Both the position numbers and the translations under genes were made by a program. The notes beneath the pieces are model-generated. The model was given only the letters and a program-made list of their open reading frames with translations, searched no databases and was not told where the DNA came from. 64,000 nt of DNA from Chloroflexota bacterium (GTDB lineage Bacteria; Chloroflexota; Anaerolineae; Anaerolineales; E44-bin32): positions 653 through 64,652 of the forward strand of contig JADFRQ010000013.1 of NCBI GenBank assembly GCA_022561215.1. The letters are read 5' to 3'. Positions 3,309-37,604 of the stretch are shown here, one piece after another (the first letter of the stretch is position 1; each line of letters opens with the position of its first letter).

Positions 3309-3863
3309 ATGGCCTGGATCAAGATCATCCACGAAAACGAAGCGGACGGCGAACTTAAAGCCGCTTATGCGGAACTAACCGAGCCGTGGGGCGGTGTGGA
3401 TAACATCATGAAGATCCACAGCCTCAACCCACCGTCCTTGGCGGGGCATTCCGCCCTCTACCGAACTTTGATGCGCGGCCATTCCGACCTGACAATCGTG
3501 CAGCGCGAGATGATCGCAGTTGTGGTCTCAGCGCTCAACCGCTGTCACTATTGACTGCGACATCACGGAGCGGGACTCCGTCGACAGACGCGTGACGCCG
3601 AGCTGGTCGAACAACTGATGGCGGACTTCCGTCAGGCGCCATTGAAAAGCTCAGATCGGGAGATGCTTGACTATGCCACGAAACTGACGCGAGAGCCGTG
3701 GAACATGGCGGAACAGGATGTCATCTCCCTGCGTGAAGCGGGCTTCAGCGATGAGGCAATCCTCGATATCAACCAGGTTACGGGTTACTATGCCTTCGTA
3801 AATCGGCTGGCGGATGGCCTCGGTGTTGAGCTGGAGGCGTTTTGGAAAGAGGGAAGAGAGTAG
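3309..3863 (+). CDS. AhpD-like / carboxymuconolactone-decarboxylase-family peroxidase-related protein, candidate selenoprotein (in-frame TGA at 3552-3554)
   Basis: ORFs 3309-3554 and 3618-3863 are in the same frame with no other stop between them. The joined sequence reads ...SALNRCHY-TGA-LRHHGAGLRR..., so the TGA falls on the second Cys of the family motif C-x-Y-C-x-x-HH. The C-terminal half (REPW..., INQVTGYYAFVNR) is also typical of this family. Confidence 0.6.
3565..3581 (+). promoter_or_regulatory. SECIS-like hairpin downstream of in-frame TGA
   Basis: ACGGAG-CGGGA-CTCCGT: a 6-bp stem with a G-rich 5-nt loop, starting 10 nt after the TGA at 3552-3554. Confidence 0.4.
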
Positions 3864-3906
3864 TCGGGCGGAACTGGTTTTCAACTTCAGGAAAGGACAA
3901 TCGTAC

Positions 3907-5070
3907 ATGGAAACAGGCACTTCACAGATGAAACAGACCCCCATCGTCTCCCCTGATGATCAGAAGGTGACCTTCGTTGAACTGTTCTTCGATTTGGTGT
4001 TCGTGTTTTCTGTAACACAGGTCGTCAGCCTGCTGCACAAGGACTTATCTTGGATCACGGTGGGCCAGGCGATCCTTGTGTTCTGGCTCGTATGGTGGGG
4101 GTGGGGTCAATTCACTTGGGCGCTGAATGCTGCCAATACGACACACCATTTCGTCCAGATCGCTGTACTGATGGCAGCTGCAATTGCGCTCTTTATGGGT
4201 ATCAGTCTTCCGGGGGCGTTTCAGGATCGAGCGTTGTGGTTCGCCATCTCTTACATTCTAGTACGACTGATTGGACTGATCCTGTTCTCCCTCGTATCCC
4301 TGGAAGATCCCGCAATGCGTGGAGCAGTACGAACCTGGACCCTGCTATCGATTACGGGCATTATTGCTATTGTTGCAGGAGGGTACATGGGCGGCGCGGC
4401 GCAATACGTGTTATGGGGCCTTGCAATCGTCCTGGACATCTTCGCCGCGAACGTCAGCGGACAAGCGGAGGGGTGGAAAATTCAACCGGATCACTTTAGT
4501 GAACGCCATGGGCTCTTTGTCATCATCGCGTTGGGTGAAACTTTGATTGTCGCGGCGAGTGAAGTTACAGAAGCGATCTTAACTTTCAACCTTGTCGTTG
4601 TAGGAGTTCTGGTAGTCGCAATCACCTGCGCCCTCTGGTGGAGCTACTTCGTGCGCGCCAAACCCGTGCTCGATCACGCCCTTAAATCTTCTCAAGGTGG
4701 CAAGCGATCGACGATGGCGAGAGACGTTTACAGCATGCTGCATTTCCCGATGTTATTCGGGGTGATCGCCTATGCCGCCTTGGTGGAAGAAGCCGTAGCC
4801 GATCCTGGTGAGCCGCTACCCTTGGCGGGAAGAGCGATGCTTGCGCTCGCTGTGGTCCTTTTTGTTGGTGGGATGGCGGTTGCCTTGTGGCGCGCGACCG
4901 GCAATCCTGTGTGGGCACGTGCGATTCTCATCATTGCGACAGCCATGGCGATCATGGCTGTCGCTGGAGTGAGCACCGCGGTCAGCCTCGGTATTGCGCT
5001 CAGCGGCATCCTCGCGATTATAGTGCTGGAGCAGCGCGCCCGAAGCTTGGTTGGAGCTGAACGTGCCTAG
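3907..5070 (+). CDS. low temperature requirement protein A (LtrA) family membrane protein
   Basis: The VTFVELFFDLVFVFSVTQ signature sits near the N-terminus, followed by many TM segments. I prefer the ATG at 3907, which follows an AGGAAAGGA RBS. The ORF track extends upstream to 3814 and would overlap the previous gene. Confidence 0.8.
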   Translation: METGTSQMKQTPIVSPDDQKVTFVELFFDLVFVFSVTQVVSLLHKDLSWITVGQAILVFWLVWWGWGQFTWALNAANTTHHFVQIAVLMAAAIALFMGISLPGAFQDRALWFAISYILVRLIGLILFSLVSLEDPAMRGAVRTWTLLSITGIIAIVAGGYMGGAAQYVLWGLAIVLDIFAANVSGQAEGWKIQPDHFSERHGLFVIIALGETLIVAASEVTEAILTFNLVVVGVLVVAITCALWWSYFVRAKPVLDHALKSSQGGKRSTMARDVYSMLHFPMLFGVIAYAALVEEAVADPGEPLPLAGRAMLALAVVLFVGGMAVALWRATGNPVWARAILIIATAMAIMAVAGVSTAVSLGIALSGILAIIVLEQRARSLVGAERA

Positions 5071-5101
5071 TACTGAGTCAAGATGATAGTGGTGGAACGA
5101 T

Positions 5102-5246
5102 GTCATTCTGAGGAGCGAAGGCGCTTCATAATCCGAAGCGACGAAGAATCTCGTTTTCCAATGAAAAAAGTCCTTGTCCATGGGCAACGAGATCCTTTCG
5201 TTCGTTGAAAGGCATTTGCATCCTCTTCGCTTTGGCTCAGAATGAC
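5102..5246. repeat. nested-palindrome MITE-like element (family A), complete copy
   Basis: Termini are GTCATTCTGA...TCAGAATGAC. An inner inverted repeat GAAGAATCTCGTTTTCC...GCAACGAGATCCTTTC lies between them. The element is intergenic. Confidence 0.75.
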
Positions 5247-5337
5247 AACCCATCCTATCCACGATGACATAGCACTAGTGGCGAATCGCCGGAGATGGGC
5301 TCGAGACCGCTAGACAAAAATCGAGTTGAGGTTGAGA

Positions 5338-5724
5338 ATGTCCAATTCAGAAAGTAGCGTCATAGATGAGATTATTCGAGTTGAGCAGCGCTGGGTGCAG
5401 GCTCATCGCGATCTTGATCTCCCCGCGCTGGAGGATATCCTGGCCGAGGATTATGTTCAGATACGGGCGGACGGAAGAGTAATTGGCAAATCCGAGGCGA
5501 TGCAATCCTATCGATCTGGAAAAAGGAGATGGGATTTCGCGCAGAGCGATCAATATCGCGTGAATGTGTATGGTGACGTTGCAATCCTGCTGGGGCGCTG
5601 GATGGGGCGCGGGGAAAACGATGGCGCCGCGTTCGACTATAGCGCGCGCTTCATGGCAATTTATGTGCGGCACGATAACCGCTGGCAGTTAACAGCCGAT
5701 CAATCTACCCCGCTCAGCGAATAA
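5338..5724 (+). CDS. SnoaL-like / DUF4440 (NTF2-fold) protein
   Basis: About 128 aa. The pattern EQRWVQAHRDLDLPALEDILAEDY...GDVAILLGRW...IYVRHDNRWQL is typical of DUF4440/NTF2-like proteins. Confidence 0.7.
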   Translation: MSNSESSVIDEIIRVEQRWVQAHRDLDLPALEDILAEDYVQIRADGRVIGKSEAMQSYRSGKRRWDFAQSDQYRVNVYGDVAILLGRWMGRGENDGAAFDYSARFMAIYVRHDNRWQLTADQSTPLSE

Positions 5725-5758
5725 AATTATCCGCAACGCTTAGCTACTCGAAGGATTT

Positions 5759-6259
5759 ATGCCGCTGCCCAATAGGATGACGGGTGATTCAGCTCGACAC
5801 GTTGCGCGCATTATCGTGATGGATGATGCCGACAAAGTGCTGCTTGTGCGTTATGAAGATGCAGAGTCATTCGACCCGGATGGTGAAGGACCGGTCACGT
5901 ATTGGGTTCCACCCGGAGGTGCGCTCAATAAGTACGAGTCGCATCGCTCTGCAGCGGCACGCGAATTGCATGAAGAGACTGGGCTAACGCCTGAGATTGG
6001 CCCGGCGCTCTGGGAGGGCAGGATCACATTGCGGATCGAGGGCAAGCTGGTTAATCAGTGGGAAAGATATTTCCTGGCGAGGTTGCCGGTTTCATCCCCG
6101 ACCGTTTCGAACCAGTCAGCGGAGGCCATTGTGGAGCATCGCTGGTGGACCTTGCCTGAACTTAAGCGTTCCTCTGCGCAGTTTTTTCCAAAGAGACTTT
6201 TTAAACTTCTGGCGCCAGTCATTAAGGGTGAAATTTCATCGGCTGCACTCCGGATTTGA
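5759..6259 (+). CDS. NUDIX hydrolase
   Basis: Complete Nudix box GALNKYESHRSAAARELHEETGL, matching GX5EX7REUXEEXGU. Confidence 0.85.
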   Translation: MPLPNRMTGDSARHVARIIVMDDADKVLLVRYEDAESFDPDGEGPVTYWVPPGGALNKYESHRSAAARELHEETGLTPEIGPALWEGRITLRIEGKLVNQWERYFLARLPVSSPTVSNQSAEAIVEHRWWTLPELKRSSAQFFPKRLFKLLAPVIKGEISSAALRI

Positions 6260-6374
6260 TCGCGCGTACAACCGGCCTGGATGTGGTGCATTTATTCAGG
6301 GATTGGCCGACGTATTGCTCCCCGGTCGAAATTTCGACTTGCGCGCGGAACCCAGAAGAATTTGGACCTGGGCG

Positions 6375-6788
6375 TCAACCCCCCACAATCGGGGAAAAAG
6401 TGTAGCACCATGCCACACCTTCAAGGACAATTTCGCCATCCGCGCGTGTTACCGTTACGGCGATCTCGGTAACAGGCTTAGAATCATGCACACTCAAGAT
6501 TTCAGCCCTGGCGGTCACCGTATCCCCAATAAAAACGGGAGCCGTGAAGCGCCATTCCTGGCTCATAAATACCGTGCCAGGCCCGGGTAGATCTTCGGCC
6601 ACGAGGGCGTGAAGAAGCCCGGTGGTGAGCCCGCCCTGGACCACCAATCTCCCAAATTTGGTAGCAGCCACAAACCCTTCATCGAAGTGCAGCGGGTTTC
6701 GATCCCCGGTCAGTTCAGCATAGGTACGCACGTGCTCGGCCGTGAAGGTGATGCTGCGCTGTGCCGTCTGGCCGACGTGGTAATTCAA
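6375..6788 (-). CDS. MaoC-like (R)-specific enoyl-CoA hydratase / dehydratase
   Basis: 137-aa hot-dog-fold protein with YAELTGDRNPLHFD and VQGGLTTGLL motifs. Confidence 0.85.
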   Translation of the reverse strand: MNYHVGQTAQRSITFTAEHVRTYAELTGDRNPLHFDEGFVAATKFGRLVVQGGLTTGLLHALVAEDLPGPGTVFMSQEWRFTAPVFIGDTVTARAEILSVHDSKPVTEIAVTVTRADGEIVLEGVAWCYTFSPIVGG

Positions 6789-6830
6789 TGTGCTGCCTTC
6801 CTCCTGTCAAGCAAGGGAATCAGGGTGGTA

Positions 6831-8069
6831 TTAGCGGCGACCCCCCGCCAGCCGAACCGCGGCGGGGGAGCGGCGCAACGCCAGCATCCCCCAAATTCCG
6901 ACCAGAGGCCCGAAGGCAAGGATAACAAACGCCCACTCCCAGCCGACGCGGGAAACAAGGCTCGGGACCAGGCGAATCGTGAATAACGTCAAAAGGAAGC
7001 CGATGCTGGTCTGCAGGGTCAAAGAAGTTCCCACGTAACGCTCGTCACAGAGCTCGCTGATGCTGGCGGAGAATTGTGCCGAGTCGGCCACGACCGTAAA
7101 CCCCCAGATCAGGCTCAGCGCCACGAGCGGGATCATCGGACCGCCGAAGAGAAATCCAATCGTAAGGGCGCAGGCGCCGCTGATCCCCATCAAGAGCGAT
7201 GTCACCGCCGTTCGCCCGATGCGATCCGCGAGCTGTCCGGCGAACAAGCTTCCCAGGGCGCCAGCGCCGAAAACAGCAAATGAAAGAACACTGGCGAGGC
7301 GAAGATCCAGGCCCAGCGATTCGAAACTTGCCAATAAAAACACCGGCAGCCAGGCCCACATGGCAAATAGCTCCCACATGTGGCCCAAATACCCAAGATT
7401 GGTGAGCATGATCTCGCGGTCGCGCAGGATCGCTCCTACGTAGCGCCAATTGAATCTCGGCGTGCGCGCGGCGAAGGGTCCCTCACGCACAAAAATCGCC
7501 GCCACCAGCGCCCCGGCTGCAGCCAGCCCCGCCGATAGATAGAGCACATACTTCCAATCCTCAAATCCGCCAGCCGCGTTGATCAGGTGTGGGGCGCCAG
7601 AGCCGAGGGCAAGCGCACCCACCAGCAAGCCAAGCCCAAGCCCGCGATCGGCCTTGGTCCAGGTAGCCATGATTTTCATAGCGACGGGATAGACGCCTGC
7701 GAGGGCCACGCCGGTCAGGAATCTCAGGGTCAATGCAATGCCCAGGCCGCTAGCGGAGGTTGCAATCAATGCGGTAGCGAGAGCCGCCAAGGCAGATGAG
7801 ATTGCCATCATCCAACGTGCGGGCAGACGATCGGCCAGGTTGAGCAGCGAGGAAGCAATCGCTCCCACGACGAACCCGATTTGAACCGACATTGTCAGCC
7901 AGGCGCGTCCAGAGTCATCCAACTGCCAGAGCTGACTCAATTGCGGCACAATAGCCGAGGCAGAGAACCAAACCGACATCCCGAACAGCGTTGCTATAGA
8001 AAGAAGGACCAGCGTGGGCCACTTGCCCACAATTCCGATAGAGCGCGGATGCGCGACTGCTTCGCCCAA
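6831..8069 (-). CDS. MFS transporter
   Basis: 412 aa and roughly 12 predicted TM helices. Gly/Ala-rich helices and loop motifs (ADRLPAR, DRIGR) resemble MFS. Confidence 0.8.
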   Translation of the reverse strand: MGEAVAHPRSIGIVGKWPTLVLLSIATLFGMSVWFSASAIVPQLSQLWQLDDSGRAWLTMSVQIGFVVGAIASSLLNLADRLPARWMMAISSALAALATALIATSASGLGIALTLRFLTGVALAGVYPVAMKIMATWTKADRGLGLGLLVGALALGSGAPHLINAAGGFEDWKYVLYLSAGLAAAGALVAAIFVREGPFAARTPRFNWRYVGAILRDREIMLTNLGYLGHMWELFAMWAWLPVFLLASFESLGLDLRLASVLSFAVFGAGALGSLFAGQLADRIGRTAVTSLLMGISGACALTIGFLFGGPMIPLVALSLIWGFTVVADSAQFSASISELCDERYVGTSLTLQTSIGFLLTLFTIRLVPSLVSRVGWEWAFVILAFGPLVGIWGMLALRRSPAAVRLAGGRR

Positions 8070-8131
8070 GTGAAAAATCTCCTTAACGAGTGCCTGTAGG
8101 CATCGCCGACAAACCGCGCCCGAGCAGAAGC

Positions 8132-10180
8132 CTAAGCGTCAGTTTTCGTGTCGTCACCCTGCACCATCTGGCGAATGTGCTCGACGACATCCGGGTTGGC
8201 GAGTGTGGTGACGTCACCGACATCCCGTCCGTTGGATATGGCGGTCAGGATGCGACGCATGATTTTTCCCGACCGCGTTTTGGGCATATCGGGCACGATC
8301 CATACGTTTTTGGGGCGCGCGATCTTACCAATGCTCTCTTCGATGGCGCGCACCACCGCCGCCTCGATCTTCTTTGAGGCCTTTGTATTAGGCTTTAATG
8401 AGATGTACATATCGGGGACGCGTCCTTTTATTTCGTCGCGCAGCGGAACCACGGCCGCCTCCGCCACCTCTTTCACGATCAAGCTAGCCGACTCCAGCTC
8501 CTTCGTACCGAGGCGGTGACCGGCTACATTGATCACGTCATCGACGCGACCCAGGATGCGGTAGTAGCCGTCCTCCGCCAGCACGGCAGCATCACCGGTA
8601 AGGTATGGCCAGTCACGCCAGTCCTTGCTCTCAGGGTCCTTGTTGTAACGCGCGTAGTAGGTCTCGACGAAACGGTCATGATCGCCCCATATGGTCTGGA
8701 ACGCTCCTGGCCACGGATTGCGGATACAAATGTTTCCCGCCGTGCTACCGGGCGGGACCTCGTTGCCATCATCATCGTAGATTATGGGATGAATCCCGGG
8801 AACGGCCGGGCCTGTGCTCCCGGGTTTCATGGGGTGCAGGGCGGGCATGGTGCTGCACAGGAATCCGCCGGTCTCCGTCTGCCACCAGGTATCGACGATG
8901 ACCGCCTCCCCTTTGCCAACGGAATGGTAGTACCAGCGCCATACCTCAGGTTCGATTGGTTCCCCCACCGTAGTCATGTGTTTGAATTTAAAGTTGTATT
9001 TGGCGGGCTCATCGGGGCCGGCCTTGCGCAGCGTGCGCACCGTGGTGGGAGCGGTGTGAAAAATATTGACATTTAACTGCTCCGCGATGCGCCAGGGTCG
9101 ACCGGCGTCGGGATACGTGGGGACTCCCTCATACAACACGCCGGTCGCCCCAAGCGCCAACGGCCCATACACGATGTAGGAGTGCCCGGTGATCCAGCCA
9201 ATATCCGCCATGCACCAATACACATCCTCAGGGTGGATGTCCTGGATGTACTTCGAGGTGCCGGCTGCGTAGGCCAGATAGCCACCGGTCGAGTGCTGGC
9301 AGCCCTTCGGTTGGCCGGTCGTCCCGCTCGTGTACATCAAGAACAGCGGCGCCTCCGCCGGCATAGGAATCGGGTCAACGCGAACTCCGCGGTAGTCCGC
9401 CAGCAGTTCGTCCACAAAGAAGTCGCGTTGCTCAACCATCTTGCTCCTGGATTGATATTCGCCCTGTTTCCGACGCCAGACGAGCATCTTCTCGACTTCC
9501 TGGCCCAAATCCCTGGCGCTGGCGATTGCCAGGTCGCCGTTCACGCGGTGATCGAGCAGCTTCCCGTTGCGATAGTAGCTGTCCATCGTGATAAGCACTT
9601 TGCTGCCCGAATCGGCGATGCGCTCCCCGCAGGCGTGACCGCTGAATCCGCCGAATACCACGGAGTGGATGATGCCCAGGCGCGCACAGGCCAGCATCGT
9701 GATGGGCAGCTCCAGCACCATAGGCATATGTATAGTGACGCGGTCTCCCGCCTTAAGCCCACAATGATCACGCAGCAGCGCCGCAAATTCGTTGACGCGC
9801 ACATAAAGCTCCTGATAGGTCAGCACAACGTGGGGTTCGTCCTCCGGCTCCGGGACCCAGATAAAGGCGGCCTTGTTGCCATGTTGCTGCAAGTGACGGT
9901 CGACACAGTTGTAGGAGGCATTGATCAGCCCTCCCACGAACCACTTCCAGGAGGGAGCTGCGCTGGTGTCCAGCATGGTGTGCCAGTAGCGCTCCCAATC
10001 CAGCAGATCGGCGTACTCCTTGAAACAATCGGGGAAATTCTCCAGGCTGAAGCGCTGGAAAATCTCTGCATCGGTCATGTTGGCTTGGGCGATGAAGCCT
10101 GCTGTGGGCGCGAACTTGTTCTCCTCCTGCCAATGCACGGCGATCTGGGCCTCGCTCACTCTGAGCTCTTTGTCAGTCAT
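8132..10180 (-). CDS. acs: acetyl-CoA synthetase (AMP-forming acetate--CoA ligase family)
   Basis: 682 aa. Motifs YTSGTTGQPKG, WWQTETGG, NCVDRH and the C-terminal PKTRSGKIMRR are diagnostic of Acs-type adenylate-forming enzymes. Exact substrate (acetate or propionate) is not determinable here. Confidence 0.85.
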   Translation of the reverse strand: MTDKELRVSEAQIAVHWQEENKFAPTAGFIAQANMTDAEIFQRFSLENFPDCFKEYADLLDWERYWHTMLDTSAAPSWKWFVGGLINASYNCVDRHLQQHGNKAAFIWVPEPEDEPHVVLTYQELYVRVNEFAALLRDHCGLKAGDRVTIHMPMVLELPITMLACARLGIIHSVVFGGFSGHACGERIADSGSKVLITMDSYYRNGKLLDHRVNGDLAIASARDLGQEVEKMLVWRRKQGEYQSRSKMVEQRDFFVDELLADYRGVRVDPIPMPAEAPLFLMYTSGTTGQPKGCQHSTGGYLAYAAGTSKYIQDIHPEDVYWCMADIGWITGHSYIVYGPLALGATGVLYEGVPTYPDAGRPWRIAEQLNVNIFHTAPTTVRTLRKAGPDEPAKYNFKFKHMTTVGEPIEPEVWRWYYHSVGKGEAVIVDTWWQTETGGFLCSTMPALHPMKPGSTGPAVPGIHPIIYDDDGNEVPPGSTAGNICIRNPWPGAFQTIWGDHDRFVETYYARYNKDPESKDWRDWPYLTGDAAVLAEDGYYRILGRVDDVINVAGHRLGTKELESASLIVKEVAEAAVVPLRDEIKGRVPDMYISLKPNTKASKKIEAAVVRAIEESIGKIARPKNVWIVPDMPKTRSGKIMRRILTAISNGRDVGDVTTLANPDVVEHIRQMVQGDDTKTDA

Positions 10181-10704
10181 CTATCGCTCTCCTCATTGGG
10201 TTCTCTCGACGAATCTCGCCATTTCTTCGAACGTCTTATTCATACGCTGTGACGTCATGAAGTGCGGCGGTTGAAGTTGCGGGCCTCCTTCTGGGTCGCA
10301 ATTGACATGCCTCTCTGCAGGGGATGCGCTAGAAAACGCATTCCACCTGCCAGTGTCATAGACATTGCGGAAAGAAGGTGAAGCCCATCTCCGAAATTGT
10401 AAGGGTAACACGCAGTGCCTCCAAATAATATCGGGTAGAAGTGTCGAAGTCTTCGAGGCCAACCTGCCCATTATTTGTGTGCAGACGGTGCGTTGGATTG
10501 CATGTCGCTTCGTTTTCTGTACTTCCGTCTGCCGCCAGGGGGCTGCAACCTTCCTGAAACATCCCCGGTTTTCCTTGTCGCGAGAAGCTCATTCACATTC
10601 TCGTTCGAGATTAGCCCCCAAGTGTGTGATGATAAAGTACACCGCTTGCGCGGGTACTTGGATCCGAATACGAAGCCCTAACAAATTAGAAAAGGAGGTG
10701 GTGC

Positions 10705-11125
10705 ATGAGTACTGCCGAAAGCTGGTTAATTCTTGGCGGCCTTTTTAATCTTTTTGCAACAGTTATCATGGGTTACGCTCTTTATTGGGTACGGATGCGC
10801 AATCCGCAAGAGCCGGCACAACCTTATGCGATGATCGCCCATAAGTTGATTCTCTGGAATGGACTGATCCTGCTGGCATTGGCCGACAGTCATCGAACGC
10901 ACGGGCTTTGACCCAGCTGTGAACACCGGCTTGGCGGTTGCTGAAGTGTCGATGACCCTATTTGCCGGTGGGCGAACAATAAGCAGCTGGGCGAAAAAGA
11001 TAGAAAGCGAAATCGGAGTCGGAGGCTGGCTGGCACGCGGTATCGGTATCGGCAACATGATTCACTTGCTGGTGATTGGCGGTATTCTCTACGGTGTTAC
11101 CCGCAACATCGTAGGACTTAATTAG
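10705..11125 (+). pseudogene. small membrane protein, apparently frameshifted
   Basis: Two 68-aa hydrophobic ORFs lie in different frames. Reading through near 10880 in the second frame gives a continuous sequence ...ILLALA/TVIERTGFDPAVNTGLAVAEV.... Confidence 0.4.
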
Positions 11126-11155
11126 GCTCGCGACGTAGGCATCGAGGAGGATCAT

Positions 11156-13977: not shown

Positions 13978-14060
13978 CCTTTCGCGAGAGTGGTTCCTCG
14001 ATTATAAGGAATTCAAACGTCCGGTGGGGAAAATAGAGACAATGTATTGACTTTTGTATG

Positions 14061-14078
14061 TGCAACCGGCCGGTTGCA
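14061..14078. repeat. short hairpin repeat, family D (GCAACCGG/CCGGTTGC palindrome)
   Basis: TGCAACCGGCCGGTTGCA. A second copy, GGCAACCGGCCGGTTGCC, lies at 56997-57014. Confidence 0.6.
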
Positions 14079-14287
14079 CGTACACTCGGGCGCTTCACGA
14101 CGTAATCAGGGCACTGTCGAGCTGAAGCTCGATCCAGACGCCCTTACGGCGGTTAGCACACTGCGCGCTTCATCCATAATCCAGCAGGGCATAAGCGAGC
14201 TGAAGCTCGTTAGCTAAAGCTGGTTAGCTAAAGCTCGTTCGCTGAAGCATGTTGGACGCTGAGGGAGCCAGAGGGTAAACTTTTATA

Positions 14288-18675: not shown

Positions 18676-19875
18676 GTGCGCAGGAGCAGGAATTCCCCAG
18701 CGATTGAAATTGCCCTCAATCGAGCAGTTCCCCTAGGCCTTCTTTTTATGTTGGCTCTGTCGAGCTGTGGAGCAAATCTGCCCCAAGTTCCGAACCAGGA
18801 GCAACCATCTCCGCAGGAAATGCCTGATCAGGTGCCAAGTGACATTCCGCAAAAAAAACCTATTGTAGAGATTCCTTCGCTCACACCACCATCTGAACAA
18901 GGTGGGATAAACACATCATTTATCCGTGATAAGGTGACCGAAGGAAATGGAAACTGGCCCTTCGTACCACTCGACAATCCGGAATTTGTCACCGCCGATC
19001 AGGCCACGTATATCGGAGCTCTCGACCTTGTGCTCGGGGTCTCTTTGTATGGTGAAAGCAAGGCCTACCCCATCAACATGATGTGGTTTCATCATGTGGC
19101 CAATGACACGATTGGGGGTCATCCCATCGCGGTAACCTACTGAATAGTCTGTAGTTCAGGGGTTGGGTTCAACCCCGTAATCGATGGTCGAAGGTTGAAT
19201 TTTGAACTCTTTGGTCTCTACAATGCGGTGATGGTGATGAGCGACAGAGAGACGGGGAGCATATGGTCTCATATAGGGGGCACGGCCCTCTATGGGCCGA
19301 GCAAGGGAGCCCAGATGGAGCTGCTGCCACTCCAGCTTACAAGCTGGGAAAAATGGCTGGAGCTACATCCCGATACATTGGTCTTATCTAACGATACGCC
19401 TTATCAGGAATGGTACACCAACATAAGCCTTGGGAGTTCATCCCTGGGCCCCGAATTTGTCGCTAGCATTGTCTACTGGGACACGCGCCTTACGCACAAC
19501 CGCTTGGTTTTGGGTGTAACCGTTGATCAGGCATTCCGCGCCTATCCGCTCGACAGGGTTGCCGCCTCCGGCGGTGTTGTCAACGATATTTTGGCAGATC
19601 GACCTGTTGTTGTGGTGGTAGATGATCAGAGCGTATTCTCCATTGCGTTCTCAAGGGAGATAAACGGGCAAGTGTTGAACTTCGAACGTACAGGCGCAGA
19701 TTCTCTTCAACTCGTCGATAAAGAAACTGGTTCCATTTGGAACCTCGAAGGTCTTGCAATCGATGGGCCCCTGGAGGGAGAGTCTTTGTCCTTTGTCACC
19801 TCCTTCATCACCGAATGGTATGGTTGGTCCGCCTATCATCCCGAGACCGAAATCTACGCGATCGCGAATCCTTGA
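18676..19875 (+). CDS. DUF3179-family lipoprotein, candidate selenoprotein (in-frame TGA at 19141-19143)
   Basis: GTG start after an AGGAGAGG RBS; lipobox LALSSCG. ORFs 18676-19143 and 19195-19875 share one frame with no other stop between them. The junction reads PIAVTY-TGA-IVCSSGVGF...LYNAVMVMSDRETGSIWSH, matching the DUF3179 core (TYCPLC.SG...D.ETGS.WSQ, from memory) with TGA on the first Cys. Confidence 0.6.
19159..19176 (+). promoter_or_regulatory. SECIS-like hairpin downstream of in-frame TGA
   Basis: GGGGTTG-GGTT-CAACCCC: a perfect 7-bp stem with a GGUU loop, starting 15 nt after the TGA. Confidence 0.45.
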
Positions 19876-28702: not shown

Positions 28703-29446
28703 TTAACTTTTGCGATAACGCCCTATCAACATAGTGTAGGTGACACGGATCTTGAATTTCCTCTCGTCCTGCTCCATAATTTTCGTGGCGTTTTCGAGGG
28801 TGTTTTCAGGGATTAGTACATCGTCCCAATTCTCGTCTGCCCAGGAAGCAAATTCATCGAGGGTGTCCCAATAGGTAGAAAGTTTGAAGCGCCCCACGCG
28901 TTCCTTCAGAAAATCGCCACGTGCAAAGACGATTTCGAGGGCATCGTTGACGAGCTCCTCATCAAGAACCCAGGCGCTATCGTCAATCTCACCCGCGAAT
29001 TGGATCTCATCCCCGAAGGCTAGTTCAAGTGGAGGTTTGCTGGCCATGGGGCGGATATCGAGCAGCCAGCCATCTTTCTGAACTACCCGCCTAACTTCTT
29101 CCAGGGCATGCACCATGCCCTCCGGGTCAATTCATCAAAACGACCAGGCAAAAATCGCTCCATCGAAAGTGGAGTCCTTGAAGGGCAGCGCTTCGGCTTT
29201 GGCCTGAGCGAAGTACACTTCGGGTGCGAAATTCTTAGGTCGGTCATCCACGGCTTCCTTCAAACGATCAAATTCTGGATCGATGCCGGCAACAGATTTC
29301 GTCAGAGAGGCATAACGCCAGGTCATGCGTCCGTTCCCGGTACCTATTTCAATCACGCGCGCATGTTCGAGGTCCGCATACTCACGCAGCTGCTTCGGCT
29401 CGTTTTCTTCCGGATCGCGAACAGGATCCATGGCAATCTCCTCCAC
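28703..29446 (-). pseudogene. class I SAM-dependent methyltransferase interrupted by tandem in-frame TGA-TGA (29132-29137); either a pseudogene or recoded
   Basis: Motif I VIEIGTGNG and motif II FDGAIFAWSF are followed by TGA TGA. The same frame continues IDPEGMVHALEEVRRVVQKDGWLLDIRP (motif III region) with no frameshift. Confidence 0.5.
29104..29120 (-). promoter_or_regulatory. SECIS-like hairpin downstream of tandem TGA-TGA
   Basis: On the minus strand, GGGCATG-GTG-CATGCCC: a perfect 7-bp stem with a GUG loop, starting 11 nt after the second TGA. Confidence 0.3.
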
Positions 29447-30435: not shown

Positions 30436-30456
30436 TCCACCATCCAGGTTCTTCGG

Positions 30457-31383: not shown

Positions 31384-31960
31384 GTAAGATGCGGAGGCGT
31401 TGATAAATGGTAATCACGGATGCCAGGCAGGCAAACGCCAAGTACCAATTGAAGCTCGCCAAATCCCCCGTGAAAAGTGGAATCGGCACGTAGAGCGCCA
31501 GCGAAAGCATCCGATCGCCTTTGCCGAAAATGCCACTATAGATGCGCTTGTATCCCAGGGCTTTGCTCAATATGCCCAGGTAAGAGGCGAGCAATACCAG
31601 GGTGAGGGCGAGGGCAATTAGGCGCAGATCAGCATACGCGCTCAGCGCTAAAAAAATCGCCGCATCGGCAACGCGATCGCCGAACTCATTTTTCACTTCA
31701 CCCCACTTATCGGCCATTCCCAAACCACGCGCTACCTGCCCATCCATCAGGTTAAAAAGCAGGCGCGAGAGCAAACCGACCGGGACCAGCCACAACACCT
31801 GGTGATTGGAGGGAGCGCTAGCCAGCGCCGCAGCTGCTAGAAAGGCGAAGACGAGCCCACCGGCCGTAAATATGTTGGGACGCACCCGATGGCGTATGGC
31901 ATAGGCGACCCAGCGCTGCATCCATCTCTGCCAGGCTGTTTTTGTGCGGTACACGCCCAC
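31361..31960 (-). CDS. CDP-alcohol phosphatidyltransferase family protein
   Basis: DGQVAR...G...DRVAD motif region in a 199-aa membrane protein. Overlaps the cdsA start by 23 nt, which suggests an operon. Confidence 0.75.
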   Translation of the reverse strand: MGVYRTKTAWQRWMQRWVAYAIRHRVRPNIFTAGGLVFAFLAAAALASAPSNHQVLWLVPVGLLSRLLFNLMDGQVARGLGMADKWGEVKNEFGDRVADAAIFLALSAYADLRLIALALTLVLLASYLGILSKALGYKRIYSGIFGKGDRMLSLALYVPIPLFTGDLASFNWYLAFACLASVITIYQRLRILRGYAQST

Positions 31961-32152
31961 GTGAATTTCCCTCCGCTCGATTCAATAACGAGCACGCACT
32001 CTCTGCGCTAACACTATCTGCGGCCTCATACTACACCATCGAACAAGCATTTCTTCTTTTAGGATGAGGCGACAGCAACCCGGGCTACTCAAGAGGGTTA
32101 CTACTACTAGTCCTCGGGCTACCTCTCAGGCAACTGTACCATCACGGAAAGT

Positions 32153-34141
32153 GTGATGACCTTTCTTAACCAACGTCAACAACATAGCCTGGCGATGATC
32201 TGCGACACCCTCGTTCCTTCCCTAACCGCCGCAGGTGACGAGGACGTGCGCCTGTTCGCCATCGGGGCTGCCGATGTCGATCTTGGCAGCCAGCTTGAAG
32301 AAGCACTCGAGGAAGTCACCGATGATCAAGAAAAATCTGACCTAAAGCTCTTTCTTTTCTTACTCGAACTTCCATGGGTCAACGCCTTGATTGCCCGAAA
32401 ATGGATGGCGTTTTCGAAGGGAGATCTTGCGCAGCGCACCGCCATCCTGGGTGGCTGGCGAGATAGTCCCCTCATGCTGGCGCGCCAGGGATTTCAGGTG
32501 GTCAAACGATTAAGCTTGTTTATCTTTTACGCCCATATGCCGGATGATCAGCCCAATCCTACATGGCCCGTCTTTGGTTATGCGGCTCCTGCCCGTGACC
32601 CGCAAAGTTCGCAATCGCGGGAACAGCGCCCGATCGTGCCCATCGTCCCCACGCAGGAGACAACCCTGGAAGCCGATGTTCTCGTGATTGGATCGGGAGC
32701 CGGTGGCGGCGTTATGGCTGGTGAGCTCAGCGCGGCCGGGCTCGATGTGCTGGTTGTGGAAAAGGGCAGTTATTACGCCGATCATGACTTTCACGGTCGT
32801 GAATCGGATAGCATGCAGGCGTTGTATGAAAATTATGGTGCGCTGACGACCAAGGATATCAGCATGGTCGTGCTCGCCGGCGACGCCCTGGGAGGCGGCA
32901 CGATTGTCAATTGGATGACATCCTTGCGCCCCCCCGAATCTGTCCTGCAGGAGTGGGCGACCGATTACGATTTTGGCGAGGCGGCCAGCGCGGCAATGCA
33001 AAGCAGTCTGGATGAAGTTTGGGCTAGATTAAATATCAACACGCAGGAGAGCGAGCCCAATCGACCGAATGCGCTCTTGGAAAAGGGGTCGCGTGCGCTC
33101 GGTTATGAGGCCGAGATTATTCCCCGCAATGTACGCGGATGTGAAACCTGCGATTATTGTATGTACGGCTGTGTTTACGGGGCGAAGCAGAGCGGCCTGA
33201 AGACCTATTTGCGCCAGGCGAACGAACATGGCGCACGTTTTCTCGTTGATACATATGTCGATCGGATTCTGCACAAGAATGGCGCAGCTAGCGGAGCGAT
33301 GGCCACTCTGCAGGGCGACCCGCCATTGCGCTTGACTCTGAAGGCGAAATTGGTTGTTGTCGCCGCAGGCTCGATTCATACCCCAGCGATTTTAATGCGC
33401 TCGGGATTGCGTAATCGCAACATTGGCAAGAACCTGCATCTCCATCCTACGACGGTGACTGTTGCGCGCTACGAAGAAGCTGTGCGAGGCTGGGAAGGGC
33501 CGCCGCAGACGCGCGTGATGAGGGATTTAATCGATCTGGACGGACAAGGCTATGGGGTGTGGCTCGAGGTTGCCGTCGGTCATCCTGGGTTATCTGCTTC
33601 AACGGCAGCATGGCTATCCGGGCGGCACCACAAGCGCGCGATGCAGGATTATGAACATTTGGCCAACAACATCATCTTGGTGCGGGATTATCATGCCGGC
33701 GAAATCAAACTCAAGAAAAATTTGCAGCCGGCGGTTCACTATGTGCTTCATCCTTACGACGCCCGCCATTTAATGCAGGGGTTGCTGGAGGGGTTGAAAA
33801 TTCACCACGCCGCGGGAGCCAGGGAAATCATCTCGCCGCACAGCACAAGTATTCGCTATCGCGAAGGGCAGGATTCCTTTGAGACATTCCTGGAGCGCGT
33901 CCAGAACGAGGGCTTGCGGGGAAACAGCCATGCTTTGTTCAGCGCACATCAAATGTCTTCCTGCAGGATTGCGGGTGATGCGCGGCGTGGGGCGGTGAAG
34001 CCCAGCGGCGAGACCTATGAGCTAAAAAATCTGTATGTCGCCGATGGGAGTGTCTTCCCCACCGCGGTCGGCGTCAATCCCATGGTTTCCATCCTCGGGG
34101 TGGCGCATCTCATCGCCCAACAGATAAAGGGCCGACTCTAG
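32153..34141 (+). CDS. GMC family FAD oxidoreductase (long-chain alcohol oxidase-like)
   Basis: Rossmann motif VIGSGAGGGVMAGELSAAGLDVLVVEKG and C-terminal GMC motif DGSVFPTAVGVNPM. Confidence 0.85.
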   Translation: MMTFLNQRQQHSLAMICDTLVPSLTAAGDEDVRLFAIGAADVDLGSQLEEALEEVTDDQEKSDLKLFLFLLELPWVNALIARKWMAFSKGDLAQRTAILGGWRDSPLMLARQGFQVVKRLSLFIFYAHMPDDQPNPTWPVFGYAAPARDPQSSQSREQRPIVPIVPTQETTLEADVLVIGSGAGGGVMAGELSAAGLDVLVVEKGSYYADHDFHGRESDSMQALYENYGALTTKDISMVVLAGDALGGGTIVNWMTSLRPPESVLQEWATDYDFGEAASAAMQSSLDEVWARLNINTQESEPNRPNALLEKGSRALGYEAEIIPRNVRGCETCDYCMYGCVYGAKQSGLKTYLRQANEHGARFLVDTYVDRILHKNGAASGAMATLQGDPPLRLTLKAKLVVVAAGSIHTPAILMRSGLRNRNIGKNLHLHPTTVTVARYEEAVRGWEGPPQTRVMRDLIDLDGQGYGVWLEVAVGHPGLSASTAAWLSGRHHKRAMQDYEHLANNIILVRDYHAGEIKLKKNLQPAVHYVLHPYDARHLMQGLLEGLKIHHAAGAREIISPHSTSIRYREGQDSFETFLERVQNEGLRGNSHALFSAHQMSSCRIAGDARRGAVKPSGETYELKNLYVADGSVFPTAVGVNPMVSILGVAHLIAQQIKGRL

Positions 34142-34236
34142 TGGGCGGGATCAGGAACCGACTTTAATCGGCGGGTTCAGGAAGCCGGGATCAAGGACCA
34201 GGATAGATCCAAAAATCCACACAACACGAGGATGGT

Positions 34237-36210
34237 ATGCAAAAGACGATTGTCATCGACGATCTTTTTAAACTCCAATTTCTGCAAGACGCGCAGTTCT
34301 CGCCGGATGGCCTAAGGGTTGCCTATGCGGTGAGCAAAGTGGTTGCCGATGAAGCTGCGGAAATAGAATCTGAGCGCGAGCTGCAAAAAACAGCGATTTG
34401 GATCCTTTCACTCGAAACACAGTCGGCAAGGATGCTTACGACAGGAGAACATGAGGATACCTCGCCGCGCTGGTCGCCGGATGGAAAACGGATCGCCTTT
34501 CTCTCTGACCGCGCGGAACAATCACAAATTTACATCATCCCCTTCGACGGAGGAGAGGCACAGGCGCTCACGAAGCTAAAACAGGGCGTTGGCAGCTCAC
34601 CGACATGGTCGCCGGATGGGACACAGATTGCCTTCACCGCAGGCCCTGCGCGAAAAGCGCGCGATCCCGGCGCACCCTACCGCATCGTGCGGCATATCTT
34701 TCGCTTTGATGATCTGGGGTATATCGATGACGTGATTCAGGACATCTATATCGCCGCGGTTGGCGGAGGCGAACCGCGACGGTTAACCAGTGACGAGAAT
34801 CTAAATGGCAATTTGGCCTGGTCACCAGATGGCGCAGAGATCGCATTTACGGCGACGATGATGCCTTCGACGCATCAACTTTACACAGGCCTTTGTGCCG
34901 TCAACCTCGAGGGGCGCACTCGCAATATCGTTTCCGACTGGGAATTTATTTCGCCCCCGGCCTGGACACCCAATGGGGAGCAAATTGTTTTTATCGGCAG
35001 GATGGCCGATGCTCGCGCAGGATCGAAGAGTGATCTCTGGATTGTGGCTAGTCAGGGAGGGGAACCTAAACCACGGACCTCGCGACTGAAAAATGGTGTG
35101 GGTGGATCTTTGATAGCGGACTTCCCCACGTTAAGCGATAAACGCGCCTCACCGCTAATCAAGATCGCCCAGGATGGGAGGCGCGCCTATGTGCAAGGAA
35201 AAGAGGGTGGCAGCCTTCATCTTTATGAAATTGCTCTCCGGGGAACCGAGGAGCATGGCATCGCAGTTGGGGGTGAACGCAGCTGCATCTTGCTGGATGC
35301 GCACGGCTCGCGCTTGTTGTATGCCGTGAGCGCGCTCGATAATCCGACGGAACTTAGTATTTTCGACACCAAGAGTGGCGAGGAGCAGCAGCTCACGCAG
35401 CTTAACGCAGATTTTCTTGCCCAGCGCACGCTGCAATCGGTCGAGCAGCTCATATTTTCCGGGAACGATGGTGAGCAGGTTGAAGGTTGGCTGCTTAAAC
35501 CGCCCGAGGGGCGGCCTCCGTACGCAACCATTCTGTACATTCATGGTGGCCCGCATTCCGGATTTGGACACATGTTTTCGTTTGATTTTCAAATGCTCAC
35601 GGGGGCCGGCTACGCGGTGTTGTTGATCAACCAGCGTGGTTCGACAGGCTACGGCGATGAATTCGCAGGTGCAATTACCGGCGATTGGGGTAATCTGGAT
35701 TACGAGGATTTGATGGCTGGGGTCGATCATGTGATCGCGCTAGGTCTCGCCGATCCCGAGCGTTTGGGCTGCTGTGGCTTGTCGGGGGGTGGCAATCTTT
35801 CCTGCTGGATCGTCGGGCATACCGATCGCTTCAAGGCAGCCGTGCCCGAAAATCCGCTCACCAATTGGGTGAGCTTTTACGGCGTGAGCGACATTGGGCC
35901 CTGGTTTAGTGTGAAGGAACTGGGTGGCCATCCGCATGAGATCCCGCAAACTTATTCCCGCTGCTCGCCGTTAACCTATGCCCATCGCTGCACGACGCCG
36001 ACCCTGCTTGTGCAAGGCGAAGACGATTTCCGCTGTCCGGCGGAACAAGCGGAGCAATTTTATGCCGTTCTCAAGGCCAACGGCTGTGAGGTGGAAATGC
36101 TGCGCTTGCCCGATAGCTCCCACGCGGGATCGATTCGCGGCGCGCCCACAGTTCGACGCGCACAGAACGAAGCGCTCCTGGATTGGATGAACCGTCATGT
36201 GCTCCGGTAG
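34237..36210 (+). CDS. S9 family serine peptidase (beta-propeller plus prolyl-oligopeptidase/acylaminoacyl-peptidase domain)
   Basis: Repeated WSPDG propeller motifs, the catalytic Ser context GLSGGG, and a C-terminal Asp/His region (GEDDFRCP, SSHAG). Confidence 0.85.
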   Translation: MQKTIVIDDLFKLQFLQDAQFSPDGLRVAYAVSKVVADEAAEIESERELQKTAIWILSLETQSARMLTTGEHEDTSPRWSPDGKRIAFLSDRAEQSQIYIIPFDGGEAQALTKLKQGVGSSPTWSPDGTQIAFTAGPARKARDPGAPYRIVRHIFRFDDLGYIDDVIQDIYIAAVGGGEPRRLTSDENLNGNLAWSPDGAEIAFTATMMPSTHQLYTGLCAVNLEGRTRNIVSDWEFISPPAWTPNGEQIVFIGRMADARAGSKSDLWIVASQGGEPKPRTSRLKNGVGGSLIADFPTLSDKRASPLIKIAQDGRRAYVQGKEGGSLHLYEIALRGTEEHGIAVGGERSCILLDAHGSRLLYAVSALDNPTELSIFDTKSGEEQQLTQLNADFLAQRTLQSVEQLIFSGNDGEQVEGWLLKPPEGRPPYATILYIHGGPHSGFGHMFSFDFQMLTGAGYAVLLINQRGSTGYGDEFAGAITGDWGNLDYEDLMAGVDHVIALGLADPERLGCCGLSGGGNLSCWIVGHTDRFKAAVPENPLTNWVSFYGVSDIGPWFSVKELGGHPHEIPQTYSRCSPLTYAHRCTTPTLLVQGEDDFRCPAEQAEQFYAVLKANGCEVEMLRLPDSSHAGSIRGAPTVRRAQNEALLDWMNRHVLR

Positions 36211-36343
36211 GGAAGGAGTGTTTGATTGGTTGTATTTTTCTGGTTCAATGGTTGCAAGTTTCAATGCGCATAGCCAACATGACAAGCGGAAAAAGGCGAA
36301 AAGTCGTAAAATTTGGGCGGCAAACTTAATAGGGAGAAGGAAG

Positions 36344-36658
36344 ATGGAAAAATTTAGGCGCAAGATACGCTGGTGGTCGTTGGTTGATTCAAGATTGCTG
36401 GCGCATTATTCGGAAACTCTGGAAGTCTGGGATGATCGTTTCGTGATGCGCAGGGGGATATTAAGCAAGAATGAGACCGTGATCCCATTTTCGAGCATCA
36501 CCAATTATTCGAGCCAACAGAGCTTTTTCGATCGGATTTTTAATATCTGTCGGCTCATCATCGAGACGGCGGGTTCGATTAATCCCGAGCTGGATTTGCG
36601 CGGATACCCGGAGAAATTGCTCGAGGTTTTTGCGGATGCGGTCGATGACGACATCTGA
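36344..36658 (+). CDS. bacterial PH domain (bPH_2 / DUF304) protein
   Basis: ATG at 36344 follows an AGGGAGAAGGAAG RBS. The pattern VMRRGILSKNETVIPFSSITNYSSQQSFFDRIFNICRLIIETAG is typical of YdbS/YdbT-like PH domains. Confidence 0.65.
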   Translation: MEKFRRKIRWWSLVDSRLLAHYSETLEVWDDRFVMRRGILSKNETVIPFSSITNYSSQQSFFDRIFNICRLIIETAGSINPELDLRGYPEKLLEVFADAVDDDI

Positions 36659-36803
36659 AATTTAATGATCGTGAATGTGTCTAAAATGTATAGTTCTACT
36701 GCTGCCAATGATGAGAGAATCCCTGGATTGTTGGAAGTGGAGCAAAATTGTTGATGTCAGTGGCGTGCCCACGCAGGAGCGTGGGACAAGAGAACACCAC
36801 ACC

Positions 36804-36828
36804 GTAGGTCAGGTTTCCATACCTGACC
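36804..36828. repeat. short hairpin repeat, family B
   Basis: GTAGGTCAGGT-TTCCAT-ACCTGACC. Another GC hairpin, CCCACGC-AGGA-GCGTGGG, lies just upstream at about 36771-36788. Confidence 0.7.
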
Positions 36829-37004
36829 GGGCACAGGCGAAATCTGGATCCTTTTCTTTAGAGATTCGTAGTGTGGGAGACGCGAGCTGCAGCTTGTTGC
36901 GGTCGCCGTAGCATCTGGGAACCGGCGCAGCTTAAGGGAGAATAAAACATCTGCTCTCCGCCTGGTGATGCAGGAGGAAAAACCCTCGTTACTGTACCTT
37001 AATT

Positions 37005-37604
37005 TCAGGGATACGTTTCATCCAGGAGCACCAGGATTGCGGCTTCTGTCTGCTGGTAACCGCCTTCGCCAATGTGTTTGTAGCGAATGTGACCCTTTTT
37101 ATCAATCAGATAAAGCGTAGGCCAATAGCGGTTTTTGTAGGCCGTCCAGGTTCGCCGGTCATTGTCCTGGGTGATCGGGTAAGTGATATCAAAACGAATG
37201 AGCGCTTCCTTTAAGTTTTCAATATCACGTTCATAGGAAAATTCAGGGTAATGATTGCCGATCACGACGAGACCCTTGTCGGCGTAGGTGTTGTGCCATT
37301 CCCTCAACGAGGGAATTACGTGTTCACAGTTTATTCAACCAAAGGTCCACATTTCAAGCAGGACGACACTGCCGCGCAGATTAGCGAGACGAAGGGGACC
37401 TTGCGTGTTGAGCCAGACTTCATTCTCAATCTCGGGCGCGGGGCCATAATCGTCTAGCAAAATCGACGCACTTTCCTGAGTAACTACCTGCTCCGGAGAA
37501 TCGTCCTGGATTATCTGCGGAGCAACTGAGGGCGCGGAACAGGCAGTGAGCAGCAAACTTATTCCCAACCCGACCCAAAAATACAGGCGGTTGAGGTTAT
37601 TCAT
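37005..37604 (-). CDS. TlpA-like thioredoxin-fold thiol:disulfide oxidoreductase lipoprotein, candidate selenoprotein (in-frame TGA at 37335-37337)
   Basis: Lipobox LLLTACS after the ATG at 37604. ORFs 37335-37700 and 37005-37307 share one frame. The junction reads VVLLEMWTFG-TGA-INCEHVIPSLREWHNTYADKGLVVIG, the classic W-x-x-x-C-x-x-C redox motif with TGA on the first Cys. Confidence 0.65.
37298..37316 (-). promoter_or_regulatory. SECIS-like hairpin downstream of in-frame TGA
   Basis: On the minus strand, ATTCCCTC-GTT-GAGGGAAT: a perfect 8-bp stem with a GUU loop, starting 18 nt after the TGA. Confidence 0.45.

Follow-up and report, generated by a model that had tools for sequence, protein, structure and literature searches.

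Four predicted selenoprotein genes in a Chloroflexota contig, including a methyltransferase with adjacent UGA codons

The AhpD-like selenoprotein family was first predicted from marine metagenomes. A 2026 inventory counts 119 prokaryotic selenoprotein families or subfamilies (PMC13188914), among them AhpD-like proteins of the TIGR01926 type (motif CxxU, where U is selenocysteine, Sec), DUF3179 proteins (UxxC/T) and thiol-disulfide isomerase-like, redoxin and Prx-like proteins (UxxC). The same source gives a consensus for the bacterial selenocysteine insertion sequence (bSECIS) element: a loop of 3-9 nt whose opening two bases include at least one G, as a rule with G or U after it, an upper stem of 4-16 bp, and a minimum free energy of -7.5 kcal/mol or lower (PMC13188914). 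Here we describe four genes interrupted by in-frame TGA codons in a 64-kb stretch of DNA from a Chloroflexota bacterium of the Anaerolineales (the window: assembly GCA_022561215.1, contig JADFRQ010000013.1, positions 653 to 64,652; G+C 49-59%). They encode an AhpD-like protein, a DUF3179 protein, a class I S-adenosylmethionine (SAM)-dependent methyltransferase and a thioredoxin-fold protein. We consider it highly probable (about 0.88) that all four are intact selenoprotein genes that ordinary gene callers have split in two, and that their TGA codons are read as Sec under the direction of SECIS elements.

Three of these genes are ordinary members of known selenoprotein families; the methyltransferase, with its predicted tandem Sec, is the new element. 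The window's AhpD-like protein shares with its family the C-H-Y-U motif, the invariant first Cys and the SECIS-type hairpin, and nothing essential differs. The DUF3179 protein (PF11376) is likewise an ordinary member, with U-I-V-C and no difference that we could find; one of its homologues carries the NCBI name 'DUF3179 domain-containing (seleno)protein'. The thioredoxin-fold protein has both its fold and its UxxC motif in common with the thiol-disulfide isomerase-like, redoxin and Prx-like selenoproteins (cd02966, PF08534, PF00578). The catalogued UxxC subfamilies are defined by CDD/NCBIfam models, whereas our protein matches at the level of fold and motif, and it scored below the cutoffs of the NCBIfam ResA, DsbE and WAxxUGC models.

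Known methyltransferase selenoproteins comprise ArsM (UxxG), MduS (CxxU, two Sec), MTase/UXPK-star (two Sec) and the ArsM/DUF2284 and ArsM/AhpD fusions. What they share with the window protein is a class I SAM domain with Sec, in some cases with more than one. The window methyltransferase scored only 18.2, 25.9, 24.4 and 14.7 bits against the models for MduS (NF045649), UXPK-star (NF047649), ArsM/AhpD (NF041537) and ArsM/DUF2284 (NF041536), whose cutoffs are 380, 460, 510 and 575 bits. None of the 119 families and subfamilies in the inventory has an adjacent U-U motif (PMC13188914). The window's RNA elements resemble the bSECIS of the E. coli fdhF type in their loop of 3-5 nt, stem of 6-8 bp, loop G and spacing of 16-26 nt; the methyltransferase differs in that one element follows two UGAs. 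On Sec use in the Anaerolineae we found nothing relevant in the open-access literature, which is weak evidence of absence.

In the mechanism that we propose, the in-frame UGA of each gene would be read as selenocysteine, and the short hairpin in the coding sequence just downstream, whose apical loop opens with G and then G or U, would act as a bacterial SECIS element. Such a hairpin would recruit SelB-GTP-Sec-tRNASec when the UGA is in the A site and would thereby outcompete release factor 2. Three of the proteins would then be Sec versions of thiol oxidoreductases (AhpD-like CxxU, DUF3179 UxxC and DipZ/TlpA-type UxxC), and in the methyltransferase one hairpin would presumably serve two UGAs in succession. 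We infer the identity of the inserted residue and the binding of SelB from the form and the evolutionary behavior of these sites, which are listed in Table 1.

Table 1. The four interrupted genes, their TGA codons and the hairpins that follow. Positions are those of the window; U marks the predicted Sec.
Feature	Position	Strand	Details
AhpD-like / peroxidase-related protein (TIGR01926, CMD fold), predicted selenoprotein gene	3309..3863	+	184 aa by read-through; C79-H-Y-U82; Pfam CMD
AhpD-like TGA and hairpin	TGA 3552-3554; ACGGAG/CGGGA/CTCCGT 3565-3581	+	offset 10 nt; loop 16 nt past UGA
DUF3179 protein, predicted selenoprotein gene	18676..19875	+	399 codons from GTG 18676 (predicted start); U156-I-V-C; Pfam DUF3179, residues 99-391
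DUF3179 TGA and hairpin	TGA 19141-19143; GGGGTTG/GGTT/CAACCCC 19159-19176	+	offset 15 nt; loop 22 nt past UGA
Class I SAM-dependent methyltransferase with family-specific C-terminal domain	28703..29446	-	read-through; start probably ATG 29431; W-S-F-U-U at the end of beta-4
Methyltransferase TGA pair and single hairpin	TGA 29137-29135 and 29134-29132; AGGGCATG/GTG/CATGCCCT 29121-29103	-	offsets 13 and 10 nt
Methyltransferase hairpin as RNA	29103..29121	-	AGGGCAUG/GUG/CAUGCCCU; loop 21 nt past first UGA, 18 nt past second
Thioredoxin-fold protein of DipZ-C/TlpA/ResA type, secreted or lipoprotein-like	37005..37700	-	Pfam; start probably ATG 37625; W-T-F-G-U-I-N-C
Thioredoxin-fold TGA and hairpin	TGA 37337-37335; ATTCCCTC/GTT/GAGGGAAT 37316-37298	-	offset 18 nt
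Thioredoxin-fold hairpin as RNA	37298..37316	-	AUUCCCUC/GUU/GAGGGAAU; loop 26 nt past UGA

The first-pass annotation of this DNA had reported exactly four genes split by in-frame TGA (at 3552, 19141, 29132/29135 and 37335), a 6-8-bp hairpin starting 10-18 nt after each TGA with G and then U or G in its loop, and a CxxC cysteine at three of the four sites. All four splits lie at those places, and we recovered the same hairpins; the CxxC sites are those of the AhpD-like (CxxU), DUF3179 (UxxC) and thioredoxin-fold (UxxC) proteins. Two details had to be amended. The methyltransferase site was correctly located, but it is not a single site: it consists of two adjacent putative Sec codons that are kept across many species. 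The count of four also holds for the genes described here, but a scan of coding flanks added two TGA junctions that lack a hairpin, at 38730 and 44062.

The translation frame continues across each site: reading through all four yields continuous proteins, interrupted by one stop or by two adjacent stops in frame. When Cys was substituted at each stop, a Pfam domain spanned the TGA in every one of the four proteins (CMD, DUF3179, Methyltransf_25 and AhpC-TSA). Contigs near-identical to the window are present in several independent ENA and Logan assemblies (L001-L010), and the TGA contexts were the same in every near-identical assembly that covers them (2-4 per site, five samples in all).

Measured against the bSECIS consensus, the hairpins of the AhpD-like, DUF3179, methyltransferase and thioredoxin-fold genes have loops of 5, 4, 3 and 3 nt and stems of 6, 7, 8 and 8 bp, all within the permitted sizes, and each loop (CGGGA, GGUU, GUG and GUU) has its G where the consensus places it. 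Every UGA-to-loop distance in Table 1, including both distances at the tandem, falls within the bSECIS spacing rule of 16-37 nt. The bare stems of the DUF3179, methyltransferase and thioredoxin-fold hairpins have predicted energies of -11.0, -11.5 and -9.6 kcal/mol, below the -7.5 threshold, and against shuffled sequences these three hairpins gave z scores of -1.7 to -2.6 (-2.6 for both DUF3179 and the thioredoxin-fold gene).

How often such hairpins follow random in-frame codons was the control that the first-pass annotation had proposed, and they proved rare, at 0.6-5%. The gene set consisted of 59 open reading frame (ORF) calls made with a codon-usage model trained on the window's long ORFs, and its 15,408 in-frame codons were the basis of the count. 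A perfect hairpin at an offset of 8-22 nt followed 2.6% of these codons when at least 6 bp were required and 0.6% when at least 7 bp were required. When the published bSECIS rules were applied, 5%, 0.85%, 0.64% and 1.6% of the codons had a hairpin that reached the stability of the respective observed one, and these four frequencies multiply to a joint probability of 4.5e-8. The 21 TGA codons that end genes all lack such a hairpin at -9 kcal/mol or below; two of them carry weak ones (about -7 to -7.7 kcal/mol). Among all TGA triplets of the window, a hairpin of -8.5 kcal/mol or lower together with coding-like flanks on both sides occurs at the claimed sites only. Scanning each stop with coding potential to either side gave back the claimed TGAs, apart from the adjacent pair at 29132-29137, which lay outside the 30-codon filter. 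The scan also gave an in-frame TAG at 11123 and the TGA junctions at 38730 and 44062.

We considered TGA 38730 as a fifth Sec site and rejected it: it is followed by no hairpin, and the stop comes only after a full cyclase domain, as expected of an ordinary terminator. Likewise, no hairpin follows the TGA junction at 44062. The guanylate-cyclase gene (37902-39038 region) stops at TGA 38730-38732, and 9 nt further on, in the same frame, there is a coding-like 98-codon ORF with no Pfam match, which we read as a separate small gene after an ordinary, hairpin-less stop. Our search for further selenoprotein genes covered TGAs with a bSECIS-type hairpin of -8.5 kcal/mol or lower, stops flanked by coding sequence, and the 8.6 kb upstream of the window that assembly L001 supplies; these hairpin and coding-flank scans yielded no additional selenoprotein gene in the window or in the upstream segment.

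The product of the DUF3179 gene matches Pfam DUF3179 with E = 1.4e-68 (231.9 bits, cutoff 27). Full-length homologues have T-Y-C-x-V-C where the window has T-Y-U-I-V-C, and one homologue has Ser in place of Sec. Of the remaining homologues listed, most (223-259 aa) are confined to the region past the site, and the three that we aligned begin directly after it, which is the product to be expected when a gene caller meets a TGA-bearing gene. A metagenome scan recovered 80 DUF3179 loci, 78 of which could be typed at the codon: 55 have TGA and 23 have TGC or TGT. The hairpin is present in 54 of the 55 TGA-form loci and in none of the 23 Cys-form loci (Fisher p = 7e-19). In the TGA-form loci its loop lies 21-22 nt past the UGA, and its energy ranges from -8.6 to -16.1 kcal/mol.

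Across 40 distinct TGA-form DUF3179 sequences, 98.9% of the cells in the stem alignment are paired, and the first loop base is an invariant G. Three of the seven stem pairs show compensatory double changes (G-C/A-U and C-G/U-A), and none of 500 shuffles reached the observed values. The tblastn matches cover residues 4-399, so the part downstream of the TGA is conserved in frame. This pattern is the textbook signature of a putative Sec codon and its SECIS element. In one part of the stem (window 19162-19173; A4 columns 22-25 with 30-33), synonymous Val codons, GTT or GTC, are paired with Asn or Asp codons, AAC or GAC, on the opposite arm; here an RNA pairing constraint appears to dictate the amino acid substitution.

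For the thioredoxin-fold protein, Pfam gave AhpC-TSA at 46.9 bits (cutoff 26) and Redoxin at 29 bits (cutoff 26.6). Among solved structures it is closest to M. tuberculosis DipZ, whose C-terminal domain (2hyx) it matches with E = 1e-39, and the TGA aligns to the first Cys of the DipZ C-I-N-C, that is, to the first CxxC position. We searched for representative homologues with the 109 residues after the TGA as the query. Among 150 cluster representatives, 138 have Cys at the Sec site; the other 12 have no coverage there, and the four of them that we inspected begin just past the site. A homologue with 66% identity on a 532-kb contig (L118) retains the TGA together with the hairpin, which there reads AUCCCCUC/GUU/GAGGGGAU and shows a compensatory U-A to C-G change.

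The AhpD-like protein passes the NCBIfam TIGR01926 cutoff with 141.9 bits against 81.8, and its full-length homologues are 46-70% identical to it. Among 120 homologues C79 of the motif is essentially invariant. The Sec column, at the second CxxC position, holds C in 58, 'W' in 53, G in 5, R, L and S in one each, and a gap in one. The 'W' entries lie on short contigs. In the two that we checked (L015 and L119), the DNA is TGA, and translation with table 11 does not give the database protein; presumably the callers had applied table 4, where TGA stands for Trp. The 'W' at the Sec position in 53 of 120 public entries is a systematic artefact that masks selenoproteins as Trp variants (L015 150-698; L119 118-654; P0163-P0214). 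In L015 and L119 the hairpin lies at the same position; one G-C pair has become G-U in L015, and the stem is rebuilt in L119 as CGGAAAA/GGGC/UUUUCCG. The hairpin is absent from the Cys-form homologue L121. In another homologous locus (L017 2001-3266), an AhpC-TSA/Redoxin gene follows the AhpD-like gene at a distance of about 170 nt, and a 53-codon ORF is called in the gap. This arrangement resembles the pairing of Prx-like and AhpD-like genes in PMC13188914; the window's two such genes are 33 kb apart.

The methyltransferase differs from the other three genes in carrying two TGAs, with the surrounding sequence ...AWSF-U-U-IDPEGMVHALEEVR. The Methyltransf_25 match spans both of them (residues 31-126, profile positions 1-97 of 97), and alignments to methyltransferases in the PDB cross the site as well, so that the break would fall within the Rossmann fold, between beta-4 and the following conserved segment. 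The C-terminal domain has no Pfam match. The eight database homologues all consist of the C-terminal part alone, truncated at the identical point, and NCBI annotates at least the C-terminal piece as a separate 'hypothetical protein'. Each recovered locus shows the same layout, in which the C-terminal ORF begins 18 nt after an N-terminal ORF of 97-99 residues.

Scanning the GTDB species, with one genome for each, gave 19 methyltransferase loci, of which 18 belong to Chloroflexota (Anaerolineae, Anaerolineales, Phototrophicaceae, Aggregatilineales) and one to an Acidobacteriota metagenome-assembled genome (MAG). Two closed Phototrophicaceae chromosomes, OZ220689.1 and OZ242316.1, carry the TGA-TGA form, as do the closed chromosomes OY760398.1, OZ253492.1 and OZ244801.1. 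The Acidobacteriota locus (L036, CAZEII010000009.1) also has TGA-TGA, and its placement could reflect horizontal transfer or a binning error. Neighboring genes gave no functional lead, each being common to at most 12 of 22 loci.

Taking together 22 methyltransferase loci (the window, L011, L014 and L019-L037), the first codon is TGA in all of them and the second is TGA in 18 and TGC or TGT in 4. The four are L014 (a farmland soil contig), L026, L033 and L037, the last three being Anaerolineales MAGs with isolate names SMAG.... Such an alternation makes sense only if the second codon is translated, as Sec or as Cys. The five codons that separate the stops from the following ATG point the same way. 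Among 21 distinct sequences these codons contain no indels, with Ile conserved in 18 and Pro in 18; the Pro codon is fixed at its first two positions and free at the third (1.57 bits), and the spacer is therefore evidently translated.

The methyltransferase hairpin lies under a different constraint. In the same 21 sequences the synonymous sites of the stem are frozen, with entropies of 0, 0.59, 0 and 0 bits: Gly is GGC or GGT, His is always CAT, Ala is always GCC, and codon +5 ends in G throughout even though its amino acid varies. Third positions outside the stem do vary, by 1.38 bits for the Val codon in the loop and by 1.4-1.9 bits for other invariant residues (Gly, Val, Arg). From these patterns we conclude that the methyltransferase is in all likelihood continuous across the site, with beta-4 ending in U-U (or U-C) and one predicted SECIS element after both UGAs.

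Two adjacent stops in an otherwise conserved gene also invite another explanation, in which TGA-TGA is a reinforced tandem stop and the 98 N-terminal and 137 C-terminal residues are made as two polypeptides by termination and reinitiation at an ATG inside the hairpin. Tandem stops are known to enforce termination. An in-frame ATG lies 15 nt past the second TGA in 22 of 22 loci and is the start that gene callers use, and we found no full-length Cys-Cys homologue among the database homologues or in the GTDB species scan. However, an alternation of the second codon between TGA and TGC/TGT only would be meaningless in an untranslated spacer, and the spacer's conservation, described above, is of the coding type. 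The break would also fall inside a Rossmann fold across which Pfam and PDB alignments are continuous, and the hairpin has the loop and the spacing of a SECIS element. We regard separate polypeptides as unlikely.

A bolder reading of the methyltransferase is that it belongs to an uncatalogued and apparently obligate selenoprotein family, found mainly in Anaerolineae, in which UGA-UGA is read as Sec-Sec by means of a single SECIS hairpin. We offer it tentatively, at slightly under even odds; the decoding of both UGAs as Sec, like the nature of the substrate, is something we infer. If it is true, this would be a natural bacterial case of tandem Sec insertion. It would place a vicinal diselenol or diselenide (a selenol-thiol in the soil clade with U-C) near the active site, possibly binding a soft metal or metalloid substrate. 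The end of beta-4 is a part of the methyltransferase fold that we take to lie near the substrate pocket.

Several observations weigh against Sec decoding, some for single genes and some for all four. The 64-kb window contains no selA, selB, selD or tRNA-Sec among the genes called and inspected with ARAGORN, Rfam and Pfam, and our reading assumes that this genome encodes the decoding machinery. ARAGORN found no tRNA genes in the window at all, and Rfam at gathering thresholds gave no match in it, the four hairpins included. The AhpD-like hairpin is weaker than the other three. Its bare stem, at -7.3 kcal/mol, misses the -7.5 rule by 0.2, and although a 45-nt fold with a bulged extension and a lower stem reaches -12.6 kcal/mol, that fold is no stabler than shuffled sequences (z = -0.28). 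Support for this element thus comes from its homologues. Two close relatives of the AhpD-like gene have AGA (Arg) or TTA (Leu) at the Sec site with the hairpin retained, so either the Sec residue is not indispensable everywhere or those copies are decaying. The AGA copy is L016 99-647 and the TTA copy is L017 2001-2546 / L018 1388-1933 (MAG GCA_001629575.1), and both codons are one base away from TGA; they could be recent losses or decaying copies, with sequencing errors as another option. As for the tandem, we found no natural bacterial case of adjacent Sec codons in the open-access literature, which is again weak evidence of absence. The recoding at a UGA-SECIS event in E. coli is only about 30-40% (PMC4513850), so a tandem would be costly unless the system here is more efficient.

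On the other side, independent tests agree. The sites align to Cys, TGA is kept in divergent homologues, the hairpin tracks the TGA, and the stems show compensatory changes or frozen synonymous sites. Together these results favor the SECIS-dependent Sec decoding that the first-pass annotation had proposed over gene decay or a changed genetic code.

A further possibility is that the hairpins aid recoding but the residue is not Sec, for example Cys inserted by the Sec pathway under selenium scarcity, or Trp or Cys inserted by near-cognate read-through. The window is without sel genes, the presence of selenium in these proteins is predicted from sequence, and the hairpins would slow ribosomes as well. 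Yet the hairpins fit the specific loop rule and spacing of bSECIS elements, three of the families are already catalogued as selenoproteins with these exact motifs, and TGA alternating with TGC/TGT at redox Cys positions and nowhere else is what classically marks Sec. We therefore judge a residue other than Sec to be improbable.

More improbable still is that the four genes are pseudogenes broken by nonsense mutation, with coincidental hairpins. Degraded genes do exist in the window (a frameshift at 46118 and the TAG at 11123), and the separate annotation of the C-terminal methyltransferase piece as 'hypothetical protein' would suit such a view. Against this, homologues from other species and habitats carry TGA at the corresponding codon even where identity has fallen to 30-35%, this codon always stands at a Cys-aligned position, and the sequence downstream remains conserved in frame, as seen for DUF3179 and in the codon-periodic variation across the methyltransferase site. 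The joint hairpin probability given above is also very low. The first-pass annotation had held that the other broken genes of the window are broken differently, by frameshifts or TAG codons, and this was borne out for the genes that we checked: the TAG at 11123 and a 1-nt frameshift at 46118. The latter is an extra A that splits a STAND regulator (BTAD/NB-ARC/TPR, 45523-47938), whose allele in L008 is intact with 804 residues. Further single-base indels between assemblies lie at 5956 and 10749, and the NUDIX gene at 5759-6259 is intact in the window and broken in L001 and L002. The frameshift lesions that we compared are polymorphic, through strain variation or assembly error, and the TGAs are fixed, which supports the contrast between the two kinds of lesion.

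TGA is the commonest stop among the 59 ORF calls (25, of which 21 are terminal), and 17 of the 21 terminal TGA calls have another in-frame stop within 50 codons; as the earlier annotation had said, TGA also serves as a genuine stop here, and the code is neither 4 nor 25. A reassignment of TGA to Trp (table 4) or Gly (table 25) would agree with the 53 'W' and 5 'G' calls among the AhpD-like entries at face value, but it can be dismissed as the least probable explanation of all, since the two 'W' calls that we checked are TGA on short contigs translated as Trp, calls elsewhere in the window end in TGA with backup stops nearby, domains such as the cyclase are complete before their TGA stops, and the in-frame TGAs occur only at Cys-aligned sites and never in Trp or Gly columns.

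With four genes and five predicted Sec codons within 34 kb, the local density is indeed high, as the first-pass annotation had claimed, though the genes do not form one operon. The genome may be exceptionally rich in selenoproteins, or the density may be local chance. Published maxima are 57-63 selenoprotein genes per genome.

Several other features of the window can be noted. Perfect palindromic hairpins lie between genes at 14055-14084, 45180-45213 and 57127-57148, with 13, 14 and 9 bp and energies of -20, -23 and -15 kcal/mol; they are probably intrinsic terminators, possibly bidirectional. At 51611-52230, a 78-codon ORF overlaps a gene for a 128-residue PIN-domain protein by 4 nt, which is the layout of a VapBC-type toxin-antitoxin pair. 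On the minus strand at 52756-56474, a guanylate-cyclase ORF (55764-56474) overlaps an AAA_16/TPR/SBP_bac_5 ORF of 1010 residues by 25 nt, and the pair could represent another large STAND-type gene, again divided by a frameshift.

Gene callers routinely split or mistranslate bacterial selenoprotein genes, and in this sense the four genes are a known phenomenon in a new organism. Recognizing them gives corrected proteins for a Chloroflexota MAG and indicates that this lineage uses selenocysteine. Less routine is the UGA-UGA with its single frozen hairpin, which is conserved in about 20 species. Should both codons be decoded as Sec, SelB would act twice in succession on one SECIS element, which would bear on SelB/SECIS recycling and on recoding efficiency, and the gene would be a natural template for engineering adjacent selenocysteines. 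A vicinal Sec-Sec in a methyltransferase would point to unexplored metal or metalloid chemistry.

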